DNA from: a virus
Virus genome (UHGV): UHGV-0114729
DNA: 45,034 bases
Strand: one strand, 5' to 3'
Shown piece by piece: positions 1,460 through 31,638 of the stretch. Position numbers and translations under genes: made by a program. Within the stretch, counting starts at the first letter, position 1. Every line of letters begins with the position of its first letter. The notes under the pieces were generated by a model that was not told where the DNA came from, did no database searches, and saw only the letters and a program-made list of their open reading frames with translations.

Positions 1460-2646
1460 CTTGCTCTTTGGTTATTTTGCAGTTGTGCTTGCAGGTCTGA
1501 AATTTGTTGTTGTAGAGCCTGAACACAGCCGAGGAGATCCATTACTATCGGGTTGTTGTCCACGGACGGGCGATCCCGATATTCCTCACTAATTTTATTC
1601 CCGGCCTCATCATACACCTCCGTGCCGGGAATTGGCTCTGGATTATGTTTGATATACTGCGGGGCAATTATTTCTGCGTCTTCCGCAATAACCCCAAAAC
1701 GTACTCGCTCTTGTTCGTCGTCACGGTAAATAAAATTAACAAGCTCAAGCGACAGCACTCTGTTTAGGGCGGTGGCCGCGTCCGCTAGCGCAATATTTTT
1801 CTTGTAATCCCTGCCAGACGTTCCCTGTAATGCAATCGTTCCCGTTGACGTCGGGAAGTTGATCATTACCTGTCCGGTTTTGTCCCAACCAGTGCCTATT
1901 CTTTTCACTAAATACACTGATACGAAATCATTACTCTCCGAATACGACGTCTCGAGCAACACAGTTTTACCAACAGTTGAATCGGGTGCCGAGGTGATTT
2001 CAAGAGTCATATCCGGGTACGACTGGCCTGAAATCCTTAATTTTGGCAGGGTCTGCTCCTGACTAAAGGTATTTTTTTCGCTCAGTAACGGGATTGCGCT
2101 ACCTGATGTGCCTGTGTTTACTGTCGCCGCTGTTCCTAAACCGAGGTTTGTGCGGGCCTCTGCTGCTGTTTTGCCACCGGTGCCGCCCTGAGCGATACTA
2201 AGCGCTGTAGTTAACCCGGTCAGGCTCGTAATGTCCTTATTTGCCCCTTTCTTCGCTAGCGATTTCTGACCAGGAACGGTCACAGCCACACCGTTAATCG
2301 TAATTGTCACGTCCCCTGTGCCGTTCATTACGTCAGCGAATCCGCTCATATTGCGCTGGTACAGAGTGAACGTCTCGGCAATATCTTGCGCCAGCCCATC
2401 AACGCTCAGACTATCACTCAGCAGAATTGAATATTTCGTACCGGCTGGAATTGCTGGGCTGGCAGCAGGCGTTACAGTGAGACTCGTAGCGCTGTTAATT
2501 GCAGTAATCTGAAATACCTGTGCCGGATTTGTCAGTGCAATAACAGTGCAGCCGTTCCGAATTAATGAACCCGCAGCAGTAAAATTAGTTCCGGTGCCGG
2601 TCAGAGTATTACCGCTGACAGCGATAGTGCCGGTTGTATAGATCAT
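1444..2646 (-). CDS. Tail fibre protein: constant N-terminal part plus currently expressed variable C-terminal cassette with intramolecular chaperone (peptidase S74-like) domain
   Basis: ORF 1444..2664; likely start is the ATG at 2646 (MIYTTGT) preceded by GGAG; C-terminal SGRDYKKNIALAD...RFGVIAEDAEIIAPQ resembles the auto-cleaving chaperone of endosialidase-type fibres. Confidence 0.75.
   Translation of the reverse strand: MIYTTGTIAVSGNTLTGTGTNFTAAGSLIRNGCTVIALTNPAQVFQITAINSATSLTVTPAASPAIPAGTKYSILLSDSLSVDGLAQDIAETFTLYQRNMSGFADVMNGTGDVTITINGVAVTVPGQKSLAKKGANKDITSLTGLTTALSIAQGGTGGKTAAEARTNLGLGTAATVNTGTSGSAIPLLSEKNTFSQEQTLPKLRISGQSYPDMTLEITSAPDSTVGKTVLLETSYSESNDFVSVYLVKRIGTGWDKTGQVMINFPTSTGTIALQGTSGRDYKKNIALADAATALNRVLSLELVNFIYRDDEQERVRFGVIAEDAEIIAPQYIKHNPEPIPGTEVYDEAGNKISEEYRDRPSVDNNPIVMDLLGCVQALQQQISDLQAQLQNNQRASHSGS
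2126..2152. repeat. Right inverted repeat of invertible segment (gix-like crossover site)
   Basis: Reverse complement of 664..690 (26/27 identical); lies in frame inside the tail-fibre ORF at the conserved TNLGLGTAAT peptide. Confidence 0.8.
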
Positions 2647-2660
2647 TTTATTTTCTCCAG

Positions 2661-2690
2661 GCAATAAAAAAACCCCGCCGGAGCGAGGTT
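2661..2690 (-). terminator. Rho-independent terminator after the lipoprotein gene
   Basis: Minus-strand hairpin CCTCGC-TCCG-GCGGGG followed by TTTTTTTATT. Confidence 0.6.
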
Positions 2691-2709
2691 TATGTTTAAG
2701 CGTAGTGGG

Positions 2710-2943
2710 TTATTTGCAGGTTGTTTCGGTAAATGTATTCGCACTTACCCAGCGCCAGCTGAAAGGATATCCAGCCCGGTACTGCGTCTGGTTGTTTTGT
2801 TTACGCACACCGTAAATCTGAACCGTAGTTTCCTGACCGCCAACGATTGCAGTGCCGCTGCAAACTGGTTCCTGTTTCTCAATTACGCCAGCGCATCCTG
2901 TAAGCATGACAGCGCCTGCCATGCAGATAATCAGTTTTCTCAT
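2710..2943 (-). CDS. Small lipoprotein (moron; possible Cor-like superinfection-exclusion protein)
   Basis: 77 aa; signal peptide plus lipobox LTGC; own promoter-like region upstream and own terminator downstream; sits between tail-tip and tail-fibre genes. Function is inferred from position only. Confidence 0.6.
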   Translation of the reverse strand: MRKLIICMAGAVMLTGCAGVIEKQEPVCSGTAIVGGQETTVQIYGVRKQNNQTQYRAGYPFSWRWVSANTFTETTCK

Positions 2944-4032: not shown

Positions 4033-7000
4033 TCAGAACACCCCCGTTAATCGGCCAACCTGCACTCTCAGAACGTTGTTGCCATCCTTGACGCTGATTG
4101 TCTGGTTGGTCTGCTTCATGGCTCCCTCCCCAGCTGTCGAACCGTAGTTCTCAAACGTCCCGGACTTATCCAGTTTCCAGCCAACAGAGCCGGCAACATA
4201 ATTGTTCGACTGGATGTAATTGCCAATTTTTGCATTGCTTATGGTCCCGTCGCCAATGACTGTATCCCTGATAATGGCCTGGCCATTCTGAATAACGAAT
4301 GGCAGCGTGACCGCACCACCGGCCTGAGTCATAACAGCAAAGCGGTTAGCCAGGAACAGCACCTGCGACTGCATACCTGCTGGCGTATTTTCGACTCCGA
4401 TACCCATTCCGGCAGCGTATTGCCGTCCGTTCGAGTCGATAGCGACTTTAATACTGTACATCGCATTCAGATTTCCGCTGATATCTGCAACCGCCCGTGC
4501 GTTCTGTTCAATTACTGTCGTCTGCCCATTAACTGACACTGTCAGCGAGTTAATCCGCGTTGCTGACGCCTGCGTGAAATCCGCAAGAGTTTTTGCAAAA
4601 TCAGTCGTATTTGCAGTACCACCTCCTGCACTTGAATCCAGCGTTTTGAGTGACTCAGCCACAGCCAGGCTTGCATCAGCCATCACGTTATCGACACGTT
4701 CGAGCCCTGCTTTATTGTCGCCGTACTGCACACTCATTCGCTGCGACTGATTCACCTGCGCTAACGTCTGCTGAATTACTGCAATCGCGTTATTCTGAAT
4801 GCCTCCTTTAATGACGCCCACATTACTGCTCTGATCTGCGATTTCTGCTGAGATTTCGTCAAAACGTAACGCTGTGGCGCTGTCCAAATCCGTGACCACT
4901 TGATCCAACTCGCTGATTTCTGCGGCATTGCGAGTACTGGCTTGTTCCGCCTCATCTGCTTTATCGCTGGCAGCTTTAGTAGCAGCAGAAAGCTCGTCGA
5001 GTCGCAGCGCTGTAGCTGATTCTGTATCTGTCACAACCTGCTCAAGCGCTGTGATTTTCGCTGCATTTTGTGCGCCAACCTTACCCGCCGCGTCCGCTTT
5101 AGAGTCGGCAGTCTTAGTAGCAGCATTGAGTTCATTAAGACGCGTCGCGACTGCTTGAGACTCGTCAGACATAGCTTGACGCACTTCAATGATATCAGCT
5201 GCGTTGTGCTCTGTAGTAGCTTCAAGGCGCAGTACATCAGCAACACGGGCTTCGGTCTCGTTGGCTATGGCTTCCTGTGTGCGCTCGATCCCGGCCTTGT
5301 TGTCCAGGTACTGAACCGTCATGGTGTTGCGCTGGCTAACCTGAGCTAACGTGTTGTTAATCAGAGCGATGGCATTACTCTGAATGCCGCCCGCAGCGCT
5401 GGCAGTAGCAGCGCTAAGCTCATCAAATCGTGAAGCGGCCGCAGAGGTGCTATCTGTAACAACTTGGGTAAGTGATGTGATATCCGCGCTGTTCTGTGCG
5501 CCAACCTTACCCGCCGCGTCCGTAGCAGCAGTAAGCTGATCGACAGCAGTTGCGCGGGCTTGAGTTTCATCAGCAAGTGCTTGTCGAACCTCAGTGATGC
5601 CCGCCGCGTTATCCTTCGTCTTAGCTTCGAGACGGGTAACATCGGTCACGCGAGCTTCAGTTTCTGTCGCTACAACTTCCCGTAGTTGCTCGAATTGCGC
5701 CGTATTAGCGCCGTTTTGGGCGGTCTGACGCAATACGACATCAGTAATCGCGAGAGAATTGGCAATAATAGCTTCAGCGGTCTGTTTGTTAGATGAAACC
5801 GCCGCGGCAAGACTATCTGCATTTTCACGAATCGCTGCTGCCAGATTTTCAGTACTGGATTTCAAATCCTCTGCAGTTTGTTTCCCGTCAATAATTGCAG
5901 CTGCCAGCGCGTCGGCATTTTCCCGGACCGCATCAGTCAGTTCGGCAATATTTTTGGTATCCTCATCTACAGTGGCGATCAGGTTTTTGAAAACCTCTGT
6001 TTCCTGAATCTCTTTGAATATTGCATCCGTAATTTCTGAAACATCGGTGCTCGCCTGCCCGCGCACCCAGTCGGTATACCCCGATTCGTTACCGGTCCGG
6101 TCAACAAGTTGCGCGCGGTACCAGAAAATCTGCCCAGCCTTAAGGCCCATCTGCTGATATTTGCGCTGCGGGTAAGGCACATCGGCCAGCAGCATTGCAT
6201 CGTCCTCGGTACCGGTCAGGCTATACTGAATTTCCGTCTTCAGCGTGTCTTCGGTATTCGCCGGGAATCCCCAGTTCAGCTCGATACCGAATACCACGTT
6301 TTCAGAAGCGATGAAGCCAACCGGCTTCGGTGGGTTTCCCACTTTACCCGTCAACGTTTTCTCTTCTGAATAGCCCCACCCAGATGAAATTTCGGCGGCA
6401 TTGATGGCACGCACGCGAACCAGGTAGCGTCCTGCATAAATCCCCGGAACATCGAATGACGTGGTGGAGCTGCGCGGCACATTCACCCAGTTCCCGTCAT
6501 TGCGACGCCACTGTGCCTCATACGCGATAGCATTTTTCGCCTGGTCCCAGCTGACGCGCATGGTCTCAACGCTGATATTCTGCTGAACGACAGAAAACGA
6601 ACTGATCGCGATATTAGCTGGCGGGGACTGATTACCGGGCGGAATTACACTTATTGGCCGCTGGTCGATAATGGCACCGGTATCGATACGCGCATATTTA
6701 TCCGGATCGTGCAAAGCGCCAGCAATCGAATACGTTCCGTCATTATTATCCGTAACGCTGATAACGCGATATTGCTGCGCGTAAAGCTCTTCAGACTCGA
6801 CAATCCACACCGATTCCACTGCAGGTGTTTCGCTGTATGCCGTTGTCACAGTGACGGCCCGCCCGTTTACGCTCTGTATCGTCCTGCTCTGCGATGCGCC
6901 GGACGGAAGGTTAACCATCAGACGGCTTCCGGGAGCGGCTGCCGAATCACGATCAAGCGTGATAACGCGACCGTTAACCGCACTGATGCGCCCTCCCATC

Positions 7001-23965: not shown

Positions 23966-24260
23966 CGTAAGAAGACGATAAGCTGGAAAGGACCCGAATA
24001 ATGCATACATCCGCATATATTATGGGCCCACACTCAAGCAAATAACTTGTATATGGTCGTAAAATCCTAATAGCATCTACCAAAGCAAACTATTGAAATT
24101 AACCTGTTCATCATGCTTTAAAATAAACCTATGTAATTAACATTTCCACTTAGTTCCAAACTGTTGTGTGTAGCAACTGACACATAGCCAAGAAATAAAT
24201 ATCGTCGCAACTTATATGTCACCCCACTAAACCTTATCAACAAACTTACACGTTAAACAC

Positions 24261-25148
24261 TTAATCCCTATCTAAAATCCCTTTCTTATAAGCCCTAGCA
24301 AGATAAAGTAGGTTACTTTCCTTATCATCACTATGTAAAATCTCAGCATGCTTATCACTTACTTTAATGAATCCCTTCGCAGCCTGCAGAAGCCCCAAAC
24401 CTGTCACCAACGGATTTTCCGTGTCGCTAACACTAATAATCGCTCCTAAAACAATATTAACCATATCGTCAGAACCTGGCATTTCAAAACTTAAATTGTA
24501 GCGATTTAAGAACCAACCTTTATTAATTTCACTAATTCTGTTTATATCTTCCAAGGAATTACGGAAGCGTTCATAAGCCTTTTTTTGAAAAAGCGGCTCA
24601 TCGGGAGCATAAGCAACATCTTGGTATAAGTCATCCAGATAATTATGGAACGCATCATAATCAACTTTATATTTATGCTTAAACTCAAGTATCTGCTCAG
24701 GATGGATATGTGGTCCGGGAACAGGAAGTGCATCAAAGAGTTCAAGTTTTAAGTTCGTATTTCTATCACTTGTCCCATTCCCCCCTATAAATTCCTCTCC
24801 TATCTGATGTAAATTCCAGTCACGCTGAGGCTCATCCTTCCTTAACTTACTAAGTATCTCAACCTGACGTTTTGGGAACTCTATCGGGTACTGATCGCTA
24901 TTGAATCCGATAGACACTACTGGTCTAGACAAAAAGTCCAAACCAATCAATATATCTTCTCGGGGTAATTGAAAATATATTTCTCTTGAGCCTGGAATTA
25001 CTAATCTATCCCAAAAAAGAGTGTAATAATTCAAATCTTCTTCATTCAACCCTCGCGCTGTCTGGAATCCACCAGTGGGCAAAACTTCCGTCATAACAGG
25101 TGAAGCAACAACACATCTTTCCACAATATTCCCCTTAGTAGTTTTCAC
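24261..25148 (-). CDS. Hypothetical protein, AT-rich cargo gene between Rz and cos
   Basis: 295-aa ORF; GC content visibly lower than flanking phage genes; AT-rich flanks; first codon is GTG and the true start is uncertain (GTG at 25124 has a better SD); contains RDWNLH. Confidence 0.55.
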   Translation of the reverse strand: MKTTKGNIVERCVVASPVMTEVLPTGGFQTARGLNEEDLNYYTLFWDRLVIPGSREIYFQLPREDILIGLDFLSRPVVSIGFNSDQYPIEFPKRQVEILSKLRKDEPQRDWNLHQIGEEFIGGNGTSDRNTNLKLELFDALPVPGPHIHPEQILEFKHKYKVDYDAFHNYLDDLYQDVAYAPDEPLFQKKAYERFRNSLEDINRISEINKGWFLNRYNLSFEMPGSDDMVNIVLGAIISVSDTENPLVTGLGLLQAAKGFIKVSDKHAEILHSDDKESNLLYLARAYKKGILDRD

Positions 25149-25398
25149 TCAAAAGCTTAGGAGAAAGTAACTATCACACCCACAAAAAAAAGTAAACGAA
25201 AAATACTGTATACTTGATTTGGATTATGAAACTCTATCAGTCACGCTTGTGGCAATAATAAAAATAATCGACAACATCGGAATACCTAATAAACAATCAT
25301 CTCAAAAATGAAATCTACTAGCATTTTTCAGAACGTCTTTTTCATAAACTAGTACATAGAACAGTTTGACTGACTTCATAAAATTTATTTTTCCCTAG

Positions 25399-25920
25399 TT
25401 AATGAGATGCTCGAACATTTTCTATCTCTCGAATCCCTGCAAAGCGCTTGTTGCCCTTTTCGATAAGTGACAGTAACGGTTTTATCCAAAGCACTGCCTG
25501 ACAATATGTCATTGGGCTGGTGGTAACGGCACGATCATCGGCTGAGTTAAGTTTGTCGGTATCGGTGTGCATGGCGCTGGCACGTAAACGGTACGCGTAT
25601 TCGAGCAGCCCACCAGCAATGTCAGCAGGAACAGGCAGATCACAGGTTTTTTCACGGCGGAGAATCTCCCGGTATTCGATAACTGTTTCTTCAGTACTGG
25701 TGTCGATCAGGGAGTTAAGCCTGATGGCATGTTCGGCAACCTGATTGAATCGATTGAAGTTGAATGCCTGGGTGGCGATCACCTGCCCCTGCATAGAATT
25801 GTCGCTTCGCAGAACGTCGTTATCGCTCTGAAGGCTACTGGCGTCGGAGCAACTCTTAACGAGAGCGACCGAAAGGACAGCAATAACAACAACGCCGATA
25901 AGACCCGGATTAATTTTCAT
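25399..25920 (-). CDS. Rz: Rz i-spanin
   Basis: Start MKINPG at 25920 overlaps the endolysin stop (ATGA); N-terminal transmembrane segment then coiled-coil periplasmic domain. Confidence 0.8.
   Translation of the reverse strand: MKINPGLIGVVVIAVLSVALVKSCSDASSLQSDNDVLRSDNSMQGQVIATQAFNFNRFNQVAEHAIRLNSLIDTSTEETVIEYREILRREKTCDLPVPADIAGGLLEYAYRLRASAMHTDTDKLNSADDRAVTTSPMTYCQAVLWIKPLLSLIEKGNKRFAGIREIENVRASH
25509..25655 (-). CDS. Rz1: Rz1 o-spanin lipoprotein, embedded in the +1 frame of Rz
   Basis: Hand-translated: GTG start after GGGAG, MKKPVICLFLLTLLVGC lipobox, proline-rich mature part, 48 aa; not on the ORF track because it is under 60 aa. Confidence 0.7.
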   Translation of the reverse strand: MKKPVICLFLLTLLVGCSNTRTVYVPAPCTPIPTNLTQPMIVPLPPAQ

Positions 25921-26465
25921 TGGTCTAACCCCCAGCACGCCAGTGCGCTTTCCTGGTCCCGTCGCTCAACCTGACCATAGCAGCCATTCTTCTGGCCTTT
26001 GGTTAGACGGCAATCACGGCCACCGTCTTTAATCCACCAGCGGATAGCTTCACAGGCTCCTTTCGTATCGCCAGCATTAATTCGCTTATAGAACGTAGAC
26101 GGGAAACATTTTCCGGGGCCGATGTTATATGGGCAGAAAGAAGCGATACCCGCTTTCTGTGGTTCGGTCAGTGGTACTTTGATATTTCGGTCAACCCACG
26201 CCAGCGCCTTGTCGCGTTCAATGGCGTTTACCTGGGCGCATTTCTCAGCTGACAGCTTCATGCCCTGTACTACTGGCTTGCCATCAACCATTGTTGCACC
26301 ACGGCAAATGGTCCAGAGTCCGCCGCCGTCGCGATATGCTGTCAAGCTGTTACCCTCTTTCTCATCCAGAAACTGATCGAGAATCACGGGTGCGGAAGCC
26401 CCGGCAAGAATCAAACCAACGACCGCTGCGCTCAATTTATTCTTCAGCTTTAGAGACATAGCCAT
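25917..26465 (-). CDS. R: SAR endolysin (T4-lysozyme-like, signal-anchor-release)
   Basis: 182 aa; N-terminal weakly hydrophobic SAR segment; E-x8-D-x5-T catalytic spacing (EGNSLTAYRDGGGLWT); resembles P21 R21. Confidence 0.85.
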   Translation of the reverse strand: MAMSLKLKNKLSAAVVGLILAGASAPVILDQFLDEKEGNSLTAYRDGGGLWTICRGATMVDGKPVVQGMKLSAEKCAQVNAIERDKALAWVDRNIKVPLTEPQKAGIASFCPYNIGPGKCFPSTFYKRINAGDTKGACEAIRWWIKDGGRDCRLTKGQKNGCYGQVERRDQESALACWGLDQ

Positions 26466-26715
26466 TGCGCCGATCCTCCCGTTCTTTCCAGCGGAAATAC
26501 CAGTTCACTGCACAGGTGATTACCGTGCATGCGATACCGACAATAATTGCCCAGTCGCTCAGGCTTAACCCTGCAATTCTGTCGGCCAACATCCAGGACA
26601 CCTCTTTTGCTGTTTTTGCTGTTTCGGCATATGCCTTCGCTGATACACCGCAGCCGGTCAGCGTGGTGCCTGTTCCATATGAAAGTCTGCTGTAAATGGT
26701 GCTCATTCTGGTCAT
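26437..26715 (-). CDS. S: Pinholin (S21-like class II holin) with dual start Met1/Met4
   Basis: 92 aa; MTRM dual-start; SAR-like first transmembrane segment; C-terminal WAIIVGIACTVITCAVNWYFRWKEREDRR resembles S21. Confidence 0.8.
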   Translation of the reverse strand: MTRMSTIYSRLSYGTGTTLTGCGVSAKAYAETAKTAKEVSWMLADRIAGLSLSDWAIIVGIACTVITCAVNWYFRWKEREDRRNGYVSKAEE

Positions 26716-26823
26716 AGCCTCACCTCCGATTCTTCGGATGGCGCTGTGTGTGTATGAAAAGGATCAGGCTTCACTGGCTGGATTTATCAACAAAGCACGT
26801 AGCGGATGATTCCCGGAAGCCTG

Positions 26824-26851
26824 AAATAAAAAAGCCCCGCTATTACGGGGC
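26824..26851 (-). terminator. Rho-independent terminator after the Q-S moron gene
   Basis: Minus-strand GCCCCG-TAATAG-CGGGGC followed by TTTTTTATTT. Confidence 0.7.
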
Positions 26852-26879
26852 AGTTAATAGAATTATAAAGTTTAAAAGT

Positions 26880-27521
26880 TTAAAAGTTTAAAGGAACCAT
26901 AAAGCTACCAGGCTCTGCACCAGCTTCTTTATTTATTTCTTTACGGATTACCTCATTAATCTGAAAAGCCTCATTGTATACTTTTTCTAAGTTAATTGAC
27001 GCCTTCATATTATAGTATGTTTTTTCCTCACAAACATATAACCTTATCGGATATGGCCTAGGGTTGATTGCCTTCCAGTGGGAGATCACAAAATTATAAA
27101 CTGCAATACCATGACCTTTCATCTTCCCTGCTGTAACATCAATGTTTAGCTGATCTAAATACTCATCGAAGTGTTGCAAGGTGTTTCTCACCCTCACGGA
27201 ATTAATTTCCTTAATTTCAATATCTTTTATTTTTTCTTGAAGGTAATTACTTCGCTTAATATGCAATCTGAATTGTTCAGGGGATTCTTCCCTAGTCTGA
27301 TTTTTAGGAACTGCGATTAGTTTCTTGACGTTAGCCGCATCTGAAAGAATACTATTTATTAATATATGAATATTGTAATCAATTTTAAAGTAGTAACCAG
27401 CATCAGGAAGTGGTGTCTCATGAAAGAGCTCTTCACAGCGTGTTTTTATCGAATGAGTTAACAACCATAATTCGTGCAAATAAATAAAATTAAGTTTCAT
27501 TTGCTCAAAGGTTTTTGACAT
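26880..27521 (-). CDS. Hypothetical protein, AT-rich moron between Q and the lysis genes
   Basis: 213-aa ORF with strong SD (AAGGAGAG N6 ATG), own sigma70-like promoter (TTCACA-N18-TATAAA) and own terminator; contains RNTLQH at residues 112-117. Confidence 0.65.
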   Translation of the reverse strand: MSKTFEQMKLNFIYLHELWLLTHSIKTRCEELFHETPLPDAGYYFKIDYNIHILINSILSDAANVKKLIAVPKNQTREESPEQFRLHIKRSNYLQEKIKDIEIKEINSVRVRNTLQHFDEYLDQLNIDVTAGKMKGHGIAVYNFVISHWKAINPRPYPIRLYVCEEKTYYNMKASINLEKVYNEAFQINEVIRKEINKEAGAEPGSFMVPLNF

Positions 27522-27854
27522 AGCGAACTCTCCTTTTCAATAGTCCGCTTTTATAGCATTTACATAAGGGGCCTGTGAATTACTATTCTGTTGCTTACCA
27601 CACTCTCGCAGTGGCCGCGCTCATGCCTTTGAGACCGTAGTCAGGGGTATCTCATGAATCCCTCACCTCTAACCGGAGAACGATTGGCGATCGTTCTGGA
27701 GTACCGGCACACCTCTTCTTTATTAACCCTAACCAGTGTGTGTTGCAGTTCGTACCTGCATCTGGCTCTCATGGAGACTCGGGACCGCATCACGACTGCG
27801 GATTTGCCTATCGGCTGCGGTCTATCCGTTTACTGGTGCATTTTCTTACCCTCC

Positions 27855-27890
27855 AGAAACGCAAAAGCCCCACGGTGTTATCCGCAGGGC
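27855..27890 (-). terminator. Candidate tR'-like terminator downstream of Q
   Basis: Minus-strand 9-bp stem GCCCTGCGG / CCGTGGGGC (two G-U pairs) followed by TTTTGCGTTTCT, about 100 nt past the Q stop. Confidence 0.5.
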
Positions 27891-27988
27891 TTGAAACGAA
27901 GGCATTAACCCATCGTTGGGACAAAATTAACACAGATTCGGGAAAAGTAAATAGCCCGCAACAAAATCGCAGGCTATCGCTACAGGCG
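27891..27988 (-). promoter_or_regulatory. Candidate late promoter (PR'-like) and Q-utilisation region
   Basis: Position immediately downstream of Q and upstream of the terminator; promoter hexamers not confidently resolved. Confidence 0.3.
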
Positions 27989-28819
27989 TTACCGCGTTAT
28001 CTGCTTAAGCTGTTTTTCTGCCCATGCCTCTTCAATATCGAATTTCGTAATCAGCTGATCATAGAACGGTTTAACGGACTTCTTCCACGTATCCAGGCTG
28101 ATTACATCCGTAATCTGGCAAACAGCTGCGTGGGCCTCAGTTGACGGGATGCGCTCATATCCGCGACCGCCACAGCGCTTGCAGGTGCTGAATACTGGAA
28201 CGCCTTGCTGCTTCGTTTCCTTCTGATTCACCGCTTTCCCACGGCCACGGCAATCACTACATGCGCAACTGATGGCTTTTTTCCCTTTGCACTGAGGACA
28301 GAGAACGCGCGTTATCTCTTTTACCTCACGCCTGTTTTGGTGCTGCGAAGGTATCACCTTCAAACCAAACGCTTTTGATGCCTTAATGATTTCTTTTGCA
28401 TGTGCCGGCGTATTGGTTTTCATACTGAATACCTCAGCATCAATAAAGCCCTCACCGTTGCAGCAATCGCACCGTTTTACACTGGCTGCGCTGCGGGAAT
28501 AATCCTCAAATGCGAAGGTGGCCAACTGGTACATCACCTGAGGCTTAACCCCGAAATCCAACTTACGCAGCGCGGCAACCTTGTCACATTTGGTCATCGC
28601 GTACTCAGCCAGCAGTCCGATAGCCCGATCCCGGTCGTTATTGCTTATGCCCATCTTGCCGAGGAAGGCGCTGTAACCCATTGCGGCGCGTTCCTGGGTC
28701 ATGCCCATGGCCGCCATGACATCCGTCCCGGTCAGCGAATCTGAACCAGTGGCGCGCGGAGAGTCGCTAATAAGCGTCGACTTGGCGAAGTGATATTTCA
28801 CGGTGTTTTCGAGGTTCAT
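27989..28819 (-). CDS. Q: Late-gene antiterminator Q (large Cys-rich Q family)
   Basis: 276 aa; SDSPRATGSDSLTGTDVMAAMGM N-terminal motif and CxxC zinc-binding motifs as in enterobacterial prophage Q proteins; position upstream of the lysis genes. Confidence 0.8.
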   Translation of the reverse strand: MNLENTVKYHFAKSTLISDSPRATGSDSLTGTDVMAAMGMTQERAAMGYSAFLGKMGISNNDRDRAIGLLAEYAMTKCDKVAALRKLDFGVKPQVMYQLATFAFEDYSRSAASVKRCDCCNGEGFIDAEVFSMKTNTPAHAKEIIKASKAFGLKVIPSQHQNRREVKEITRVLCPQCKGKKAISCACSDCRGRGKAVNQKETKQQGVPVFSTCKRCGGRGYERIPSTEAHAAVCQITDVISLDTWKKSVKPFYDQLITKFDIEEAWAEKQLKQITR

Positions 28820-31053: not shown

Positions 31054-31638
31054 TCAAAGGTCTTCTTCGTCTTGGTATTTCAGCCTTTTGTCTTTTATTT
31101 TCTGAAGTCTTTCCTCAAGCGCTGGAAGAACCCACTTTGCAAGTTCGGTAGCAGGGAAGCCATTCTCTTTACGGATTCCCGAAGCAATCTCAGCAGCTTT
31201 TAATCCAAGTAAGGAAAACTGGTATTGTCTCTCATCGAAGTACTCTCGATGATCTGGAGGTGAAGACATGTATTCACCGACAAAATTAATAGATTTTATA
31301 GCCTCATTTTGCTTCATTGGAAGGCTGCAAATTTCATACATTGTTTTAGATTTCAGAGACTTCCAGTTTCCCTTAACTAATGAATAGTCAATTTTTTCAG
31401 GAAGCTTTGTTGTAGATTCATACTCACCTTGCTCACCATTAGCCTCGCCATCATCCTGGACAACCTCAGCACACTTAACAGCATAGTTTTCAAGGAGGAA
31501 TACCAATTCTGCACAAATGAATTTTCTTTCTGGGCTAGACTGCTTATTTTCTTTGAACCACCCGATAAAGTGGTTTGCACCATGGCCTATTACTGCCCCG
31601 ATTGCACCACCGATCATTGAACCAACCCACAGTTCCAT
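31054..31638 (-). CDS. Hypothetical membrane-anchored protein (AT-rich)
   Basis: 194 aa; N-terminal glycine-zipper transmembrane segment; GGAG RBS 5 nt after the stop of the upstream 87-aa gene. Confidence 0.55.
   Translation of the reverse strand: MELWVGSMIGGAIGAVIGHGANHFIGWFKENKQSSPERKFICAELVFLLENYAVKCAEVVQDDGEANGEQGEYESTTKLPEKIDYSLVKGNWKSLKSKTMYEICSLPMKQNEAIKSINFVGEYMSSPPDHREYFDERQYQFSLLGLKAAEIASGIRKENGFPATELAKWVLPALEERLQKIKDKRLKYQDEEDL

Follow-up and report, generated by a model that had tools for sequence, protein, structure and literature searches.

What does a small, AT-rich gene do between the late antiterminator gene Q and the lysis genes of a lambdoid phage? We examined this question in the virus genome UHGV-0114729, whose full 45,034-nt stretch of DNA is called the window below. 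An earlier reading of the sequence by itself (the original prediction) had picked out a 213-amino-acid (aa) open reading frame (ORF) at 26880..27521 and suggested that it might encode a HEPN-type RNase acting as an abortive-infection effector or a toxin. The ORF is present and lies on the minus strand, as do all late genes of the window. It corresponds to gp56 of Enterobacteria phage mEp237, where it is annotated 'hypothetical protein'; positions 26700..28000 are 99.8% identical to mEp237, and a literature search for this phage found no paper dealing with gp56. Our best explanation, in which we place about as much belief as doubt, is that the locus is a moron carrying a stand-alone HEPN RNase that would serve as a one-gene abortive-infection or anti-phage defense. 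A one-protein defense appears the most likely role because the protein carries a HEPN motif, is never accompanied by a partner, has an autonomous (predicted) promoter and is spread over prophages and integrons.

Motif conservation and predicted fold of the protein

The 213-aa protein and its relatives form a family of 293 clusters at 90% identity (238 representatives at 50%), nearly all of them 205-260 aa long with a single matched stretch, from Gamma-, Beta-, Epsilon- and Deltaproteobacteria and at least one Bacillota metagenome-assembled genome. We assessed conservation in 50 divergent representatives (20-53% identity; mean column identity 20%). Only three columns are invariant in this sample: R90, R112 and H117. 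Two of these belong to the motif R112-N-T-L-Q-H117, which the original prediction had read as a HEPN signature and which is encoded at 27188..27171 as it described. Position 113 is N in 41 representatives and H in 9, and R-[NH]-x3-H is found in 50/50. Failure of the motif to be conserved in homologs had been named beforehand as a reason to abandon the HEPN assignment; R112 and H117 are each retained in 50/50. Several further columns are nearly invariant (E116 in 48/50, E120 in 45/50, D123 in 49/50, R160 in 45/50, Y162 in 46/50 and E17, in helix 1, in 47/50; also Y14), and the family signature reads R-[NH]-[ST]-[LIV]-E-H-[FY]-D-E-x-[LVI]-D.

HEPN proteins (Pfam clan CL0291) are defined by a conserved Rx4-6H motif in which a polar residue (N, D or H) follows straight after the R, and this motif is placed at a helix end and in the non-helical break before the last helix of the bundle (Anantharaman et al. 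2013, PMC3710099). An AlphaFold2 model of the 213-aa protein, built from a 40-sequence alignment (pLDDT 91.7, pTM 0.88), has three long helices (residues 12-35, 49-69 and 81-97) followed by a short helix, 109-115, that R112 ends; H117 falls in a two-residue non-helical break (116-117) ahead of helix 118-130. In the predicted structure, the motif thus sits at a helix end and break before the last bundle helix. Beyond the bundle, the model contains strands 140-146, 157-163, 168-171 and 175-177 and a helix at 178-195. This C-terminal alpha/beta domain and the invariant R90 are features that the original prediction did not contain.

One alternative is that the protein is no nuclease but a helical-bundle adaptor or regulator, whose conserved R and H have a binding or structural role and resemble the HEPN motif by chance. 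Such a protein would not be expected to hold R112 and H117 as two of only three invariant columns at this level of divergence, to limit the residue after the R to N or H, and to carry the motif in the topological position expected for HEPN; the top-ranked PDB neighbor of the model is also a HEPN protein. We consider this alternative unlikely.

A number of results weigh against the HEPN assignment. The 213-aa protein has no Pfam match at E <= 10 and no NCBIfam or PHROG family, and none of the 50 relatives matches a Pfam family at E <= 0.1, hence no HEPN Pfam family. Sequence searches of the PDB gave chance matches only and profile searches were empty; no sequence-profile match to a curated HEPN family was obtained, and a Foldseek search of the model against the PDB returned nothing at E < 1. 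A second HEPN motif near the active site, typically Ex3[KR] in helix 2, could not be clearly recognized; helix 2 has D61-x4-K66, which is conserved among close relatives only. Lastly, two features are not standard for HEPN: the cluster of E116, D119, E120 and D123 beside H117, and the invariant R90. Matches in PADLOC are marginal (CasR at E 0.004 for the protein itself; Cas13a at E ~0.004-0.008 in 3/50 members), although the weak Cas13a matches count in favor of HEPN. Searches with Pfam, NCBIfam, PHROG and PADLOC models yielded nothing usable for the protein or its 50 relatives, and we treat them as a separate, previously undescribed family.

Two of the refuting conditions named with the original prediction were examined, motif conservation and fold, and neither refuted the HEPN idea. 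The fold search had a divided outcome: the model is a helical bundle with a HEPN protein at rank 1, and no PDB neighbor reaches E < 1. The HEPN-type RNase reading is supported by the invariance and topology of the motif, with no profile match to a curated HEPN family. Taking motif invariance, motif topology and the rank-1 neighbor together, we think it quite probable that the protein belongs to the HEPN superfamily, in which it would form a family of its own, distinguished by an added C-terminal domain. Support for the HEPN reading is substantial without being conclusive. By analogy with HEPN proteins, it would have metal-independent RNase activity from a composite dimeric site, and we propose that the C-terminal alpha/beta domain could be a sensor or regulatory module.

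A Foldseek search of BFVD with the same model gave a single significant neighbor, A0A514A2X7, an uncharacterized 188-aa protein of Gordonia phage Madeline (E 3e-4, probability 1.00, TM 0.57-0.64 over the full length). This match suggests that the whole two-domain fold as modeled also occurs in actinophages. The Madeline protein is a lead toward actinophage solo HEPN proteins such as Butters gp57r.

The cassette and its slot

The original prediction described an AT-rich gene insulated by promoter-like elements, a consensus-like Shine-Dalgarno sequence and a terminator of its own, and every element of this description is present. GC content is 0.33-0.36 (about 0.34) across 26850..27600, against 0.51-0.55 (about 0.52) in the flanks on both sides. 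The Shine-Dalgarno sequence, AAGGAG at 27535..27530, stands 8 nt before the ATG. The terminator (26851..26824) consists of GCCCCGTAATAGCGGGGC followed by TTTTTTATTT and folds at -14.3 kcal/mol (z -4.14), a stability reached by 0/200 shuffled sequences. As for the promoter, a simple scan gave no minus-strand site, whereas inspection by eye found a candidate with a -35 element TTCACA (27579..27574), an 18-nt spacer and an extended -10 element TGcTATAAA (27558..27550). The scan demands T at position 6 of the -10 hexamer and skipped this site because that position is A.

Comparison with related cassettes argues that these elements belong together. The -35, the TG, the -10 and their spacing are kept in nine cassettes with 55-100% protein identity, in two prophage slots. 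In the Citrobacter and Enterobacter cassettes (55-69% protein identity) the -35 reads TTCCCA, TTTCCA or TTCACT with the 18-nt spacing retained, and the Shine-Dalgarno sequence and the hairpin after the stop codon are also kept; the spacer sequence diverges, as does all sequence lying further upstream. Between cassettes, the block AGGAGAGTTCGC-ATG hardly varies. This comparative evidence suggests that the predicted promoter, Shine-Dalgarno sequence, ORF and terminator travel as one unit, and a block conserved in this way across slots fits the definition of a moron. The gene is moreover an extra one, inserted between neighbors that are adjacent in related phages, and it combines a predicted promoter and a terminator of its own with deviant base composition. 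On these sequence features we conclude that the locus is a moron: a self-contained cargo unit of ~0.75-0.8 kb with a predicted promoter.

In the Citrobacter/Enterobacter-type cassettes (locus L003 at 5935..5960, and the corresponding region of L045-L048), the predicted -35 is flanked by the two arms of a perfect 6-bp inverted repeat, CAGGCA...TGCCTG, which is not found in the window copy. This repeat could serve as an operator.

Read along the minus strand, the region runs from Q through a tR'-like terminator, a leader, the 213-aa ORF and its terminator to holin, lysozyme and Rz. Two hairpins lie 3' of Q, of which that at 27892..27865 is the tR'-like one; it corresponds to an annotated rho-independent terminator of phage HK225. 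This terminator ends the short pR' transcript, and Q-modified polymerase must pass through it. In Stx phages the stx cargo lies between Q/pR'/tR' and the holin gene and is expressed with the late genes. The original prediction placed the ORF in this stx-equivalent slot, and the position is right, with Q and tR' upstream and the holin gene downstream; the likeness to stx is positional only.

Where the cargo begins can be read from filled and empty slots. The four aligned E. coli copies are nearly identical from just past tR' to ~100 nt beyond the cassette terminator, the 8-bp repeat described below excepted, and the leader at 27605..27864 is 99-100% conserved in these four cargo-carrying prophages. 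A prophage of E. coli 2017C-4173W12 has an 'empty' Q-holin slot that carries the leader at 91% identity and no cargo; its homology to the window stops near 27605 and is followed by a short terminator of its own and then the holins. Since the leader is common to filled and empty slots and homology ends at ~27605, the cargo begins ~80 nt upstream of the ATG, and the leader (27864..27605) is by this alignment slot backbone rather than cargo. HK225 carries a different gene in the same Q-holin slot, in the opposite orientation.

The leader is 91-100% conserved in Q-holin slots with or without cargo and behind different Q types, and is also found at 2501..2769 of locus L017. It starts with GGAGG and a 3-codon mini-ORF, ATG CAC CAG TAA, at 27841..27830. 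A search for tRNAs or a structured RNA in the interval between Q and the ORF found neither: the 470 bp contain no tRNAs, and the leader has no Rfam match and no significant fold (z -1.27).

A tandem repeat, AAAGTTTA, spans the stop codon, as had been claimed, with a period of 8 and not 9 (26867..26892; 3.2 copies, 100% match by Tandem Repeats Finder, TRF). The 9-mer of the original prediction does occur three times, adjacent copies sharing one base. The stop codon falls within the first 1.5 units. E. coli prophages that otherwise match at 98-99% identity (loci L014, L015 and L016 among them) differ in carrying 2, 3 or 7 copies; the protein is unchanged by repeat number because the copies follow the first in-frame stop. 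The variable repeat lies between the stop codon and the terminator.

Distribution, candidate function and related systems

The gene is rare and patchy in distribution. Seven of 5426 complete E. coli genomes (0.13%) carry it, as do 13 of 100,044 species representatives and 21 of the 2.9 million viral contigs of IMG/VR. In all seven E. coli carriers it lies between the Q gene and holin, with differing Q genes and lysis cassettes, and three Q/lysis combinations are seen in Escherichia. The Citrobacter and Enterobacter prophages and related viral contigs hold it in the slot between lysis genes and terminase. In an Aeromonas prophage it is on the opposite strand, between replication gene P and the nin genes; one other viral contig has it upstream of ninG/Q, likewise on the opposite strand. 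A filamentous prophage of Vibrio crassostreae carries a homolog directly after zot. GC content of the gene ranges from 0.30 to 0.55 in the loci for which it was computed.

A further context is an integron. The relative in Pseudoduganella (locus L019), as distinct from the window copy, is an attC-flanked integron cassette: an attC site, GTCCAAC...GTTGGGA (67 nt, -30.7 kcal/mol), begins 6 nt after the stop codon, sister attC sites lie between neighboring cassettes, small ORFs form an array on the same strand, and an IntI-type integrase (PF00589 and PF13495) is encoded next to the array on the opposite strand. The contexts in Aurantivibrio and Xanthomonas are integron-like and less clear. Across all contexts read, no neighbor is common to all, and no MNT antitoxin gene is adjacent to the gene in the window or in any related locus examined.

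Some neighbors recur locally. In Enterobacter-type prophages a 485-aa ORF without Pfam or PADLOC match (L022, 6801..8258) lies downstream of the homolog, directly after it in L022, L023 and L048 and further downstream in L047. Because the Citrobacter and E. coli copies lack this ORF, it is no obligate partner, and it may represent additional cargo. In V. crassostreae (L011-L013) the homolog is followed by a conserved 318-aa ORF that matches no family, and in L012 and L013 a Ymh-family protein (PF09509, a HEPN family according to PMC3710099) is encoded ~2.6 kb downstream.

These contexts bear on whether the protein serves the phage's own lytic cycle, as a late RNase for host shut-off, counter-defense or competition with co-resident elements, with no protection of the lysogen. 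Every Escherichia copy follows Q/pR'/tR' directly and in the same orientation, so that strong transcription along with the lysis genes would be expected; in Citrobacter and Enterobacter, too, the gene points the same way as the late genes. This position directly under late transcription could point to a lytic role and counts against a defense. Conversely, the cassette carries its own conserved predicted promoter and terminator, and relatives lie on the opposite strand in early/nin regions, in a filamentous prophage and in an integron cassette without a phage. Many related phages lack the gene, one of them with an empty slot, and it is therefore dispensable for lytic growth. We view a purely lytic role as improbable.

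The protein might instead have no anti-phage role and act as a selfish toxin, as an addiction element or in lysogenic conversion, altering host physiology through cleavage of RNA; stx-like virulence cargo would be one extreme form of this reading. The slot is the one that stx occupies in Stx phages, and the integron arrays and Xanthomonas neighborhoods hold toxin and immunity genes (SymE, SUKH, Imm26). HEPN domains are also common as toxins of toxin-antitoxin (TA) modules (PMC3710099). Against this, neither an antitoxin nor an MNT partner was found in any context examined, the N-terminus is not hydrophobic and so offers no signal peptide, and relatives in free-living Sulfurimonas, Desulfuromonas and Acidithiobacillus speak against virulence through a host-directed toxin. 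The possibility of a type I antisense-RNA antitoxin was rejected: the 7 antisense promoter-like sites found, against 3.7 +/- 2.1 expected, are within chance for AT-rich DNA. A role as toxin or conversion factor seems to us very doubtful.

An anti-phage role has close precedents. HepS (STM14_3211) is a 'HEPN solo' abortive-infection protein of the Salmonella prophage Gifsy-1 (Sargen et al., Nature 2026, PMC13043305). It carries R100-N101-x3-H105 and forms a tetramer with a buried site that is opened by a peptide of the siphophage tail-tip protein J, whereupon it cleaves tRNA anticodon loops; it is non-toxic at rest, unites sensor and effector in one protein, and has homologs that are often on prophages (PMC13043305). 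The 213-aa protein resembles HepS in being a single predicted HEPN protein of ~200 aa with R-N-x3-H near residue 100, and in its setting, since both genes occupy an accessory position in a lambdoid prophage and neither is accompanied by a gene for a partner or inhibitor. It also has the other traits of this type, at 213 aa (<250), with no shared neighbor and with occurrences in the 21 IMG/VR contigs and in several prophage slots. A look at Gifsy-1 of strain LT2 gave no obvious candidate for the HepS gene.

Other solo HEPN defenses are known from Esos of the V. cholerae superintegron and from gp57r of mycobacteriophage Butters. A pattern scan of the species-representative genomes gave no V. cholerae relative of the 213-aa protein. 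Lactococcal AbiD/F, AbiJ, AbiU2 and AbiV, the S. aureus prophage protein Tha and Butters gp57r are HEPN proteins that confer phage resistance; many are stand-alone, and several are expressed constitutively from prophages. Their Pfam and PADLOC models match neither the 213-aa protein nor any of its 50 relatives. Vpc_cass2 (PDB 3jrt), from an integron cassette HEPN family (PMC3710099), has 12% identity and no profile-level similarity to it and, at 166 aa, covers only its N-terminal domain. HEPN-MNT TA systems of type II/VII (for example, PDB 7ae2) have an adjacent MNT gene, whereas here it is absent and no neighbor is conserved; the tyrosine of their RX4HXY motif is also missing, H117-F-D119 standing in its place. 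Stx, lastly, is an unrelated protein: the present cargo has no signal peptide, is a single gene with its own predicted promoter and terminator, and has relatives that occur in non-pathogens and in integrons and are not confined to the Q-holin slot.

We adopt the sensor-effector model of HepS for the 213-aa protein. In this mEp237-type lambdoid phage the cassette takes the place of a short segment that separates the tR' leader from the holin gene. In a lysogen it would be transcribed from its own extended -10 promoter, and upon induction also by Q-antiterminated late transcription reading through both terminators into the lysis genes. At rest the protein would be an inactive oligomer; because no antitoxin gene ever accompanies the gene, the protein would have to be held in check within the molecule itself or by the geometry of the oligomer, with the C-terminal domain as candidate sensor. 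A component of an infecting phage would switch the protein on, and its paired Rx4H sites would then cleave tRNA or mRNA independently of metal, such that translation stops and the infection is aborted. What the analysis establishes is the anatomy of the cassette, the existence of the family, the invariance of the motif, the helical-bundle model and the mobile context without partners. The RNase activity, oligomerization, trigger, target and defense phenotype are what we infer for the protein, and the abortive-infection role is assigned by analogy with HepS and Esos.

Support from outside comes from DefensePredictor, whose Table S10 lists WP_021539060.1 as a predicted novel defense gene with no homology to known defense proteins; its mean log-odds of 7.44 exceeds the strict cutoff of 4, and it is not among the 118 units tested there. 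This entry is the allele of strain BE2-5, 98% identical to the window protein. Two points temper it: the overall validation rate of DefensePredictor is 45%, and its features include low GC and neighborhood, which overlap with the arguments used here. The machine-learning prediction lends some support to a defense role, which we regard as plausible at about even odds.

On this reading the locus would be a new family-level variant of the solo HEPN defenses on mobile elements; it is not categorically new and is stx-like in position only. The protein might further be the founding member of a new stand-alone anti-phage family, a partner-free HEPN RNase with a built-in alpha/beta sensor and its own trigger and RNA target, exchanged as a ~0.75-kb unit between tailed-prophage morons, filamentous prophages and integron cassettes; we put this forward tentatively, with somewhat more doubt than belief. 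If confirmed, it would be a compact 213-aa, partner-free HEPN defense family missed by Pfam, NCBIfam, PHROGs and PADLOC v2 and flagged only by the one machine-learning list. It would also be a clean case in nature of a single defense gene that passes from one platform to another (prophage moron, filamentous phage, integron cassette), and such movement supports the view that these platforms draw on a common cargo pool. With the E. coli copy under Q-dependent late transcription, how does the induced prophage escape its own RNase, a question that HepS also poses? The C-terminal domain and R90 are targets for finding a new mode of trigger sensing, and mEp237 is an isolated, cultivable phage.

Feature coordinates and other cargo in the window

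Table 1. Features of the Q-holin slot, with positions in the window.
Feature	Position	Strand	Basis or remark
Q antiterminator gene	27989..28819	-	Pfam Antiterm PF03589, E 2.2e-44; annotated Q in mEp237; upstream slot boundary
tR'-like intrinsic terminator 3' of Q	27865..27892	-	11-pair hairpin with 7 GC pairs, then T run
GC-normal leader, ~260 nt	27605..27864	-	Q-holin backbone, not cargo (from alignment)
Candidate sigma-70 promoter of the cassette	27550..27579	-	Read from sequence
Shine-Dalgarno AAGGAG	27530..27535	-	8 nt before ATG
213-aa ORF (mEp237 gp56), predicted solo HEPN-like protein	26880..27521	-	
N-terminal helical bundle, predicted HEPN-like domain, residues ~1-132	27126..27521	-	
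Codons of R112-N-T-L-Q-H117, predicted catalytic Rx4H motif	27171..27188	-	
C-terminal alpha/beta domain (modeled), residues ~135-213, four strands and one helix	26883..27119	-	
8-bp tandem repeat AAAGTTTA, 3.2 copies	26867..26892	.	TRF score 52, 100% matches
Intrinsic terminator of the cassette	26824..26851	-	7-bp stem with 6 GC pairs, then U tract
Holin gene	26437..26715	-	Pfam Phage_holin_2_3 and P21 holin S; annotated holin in mEp237; downstream slot boundary

Two other ORFs of the window may be cargo. In the nin region, a 194-aa ORF with a hydrophobic N-terminus (31054..31638, minus strand) matches the PADLOC candidate defense family PDC-S67 (E 6e-45) and may be a second defense cargo of the phage. 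A 295-aa ORF (24261..25148, minus strand) between Rz and the small terminase gene lies in a second AT-rich island (~24000..25400, GC 0.34-0.40) and matches Pfam DUF6236 (E 7e-16), with no PADLOC match. In its place mEp237 has four smaller hypothetical-protein ORFs, gp60-gp63, beyond Rz, and this position therefore looks like another moron slot with swapped cargo.

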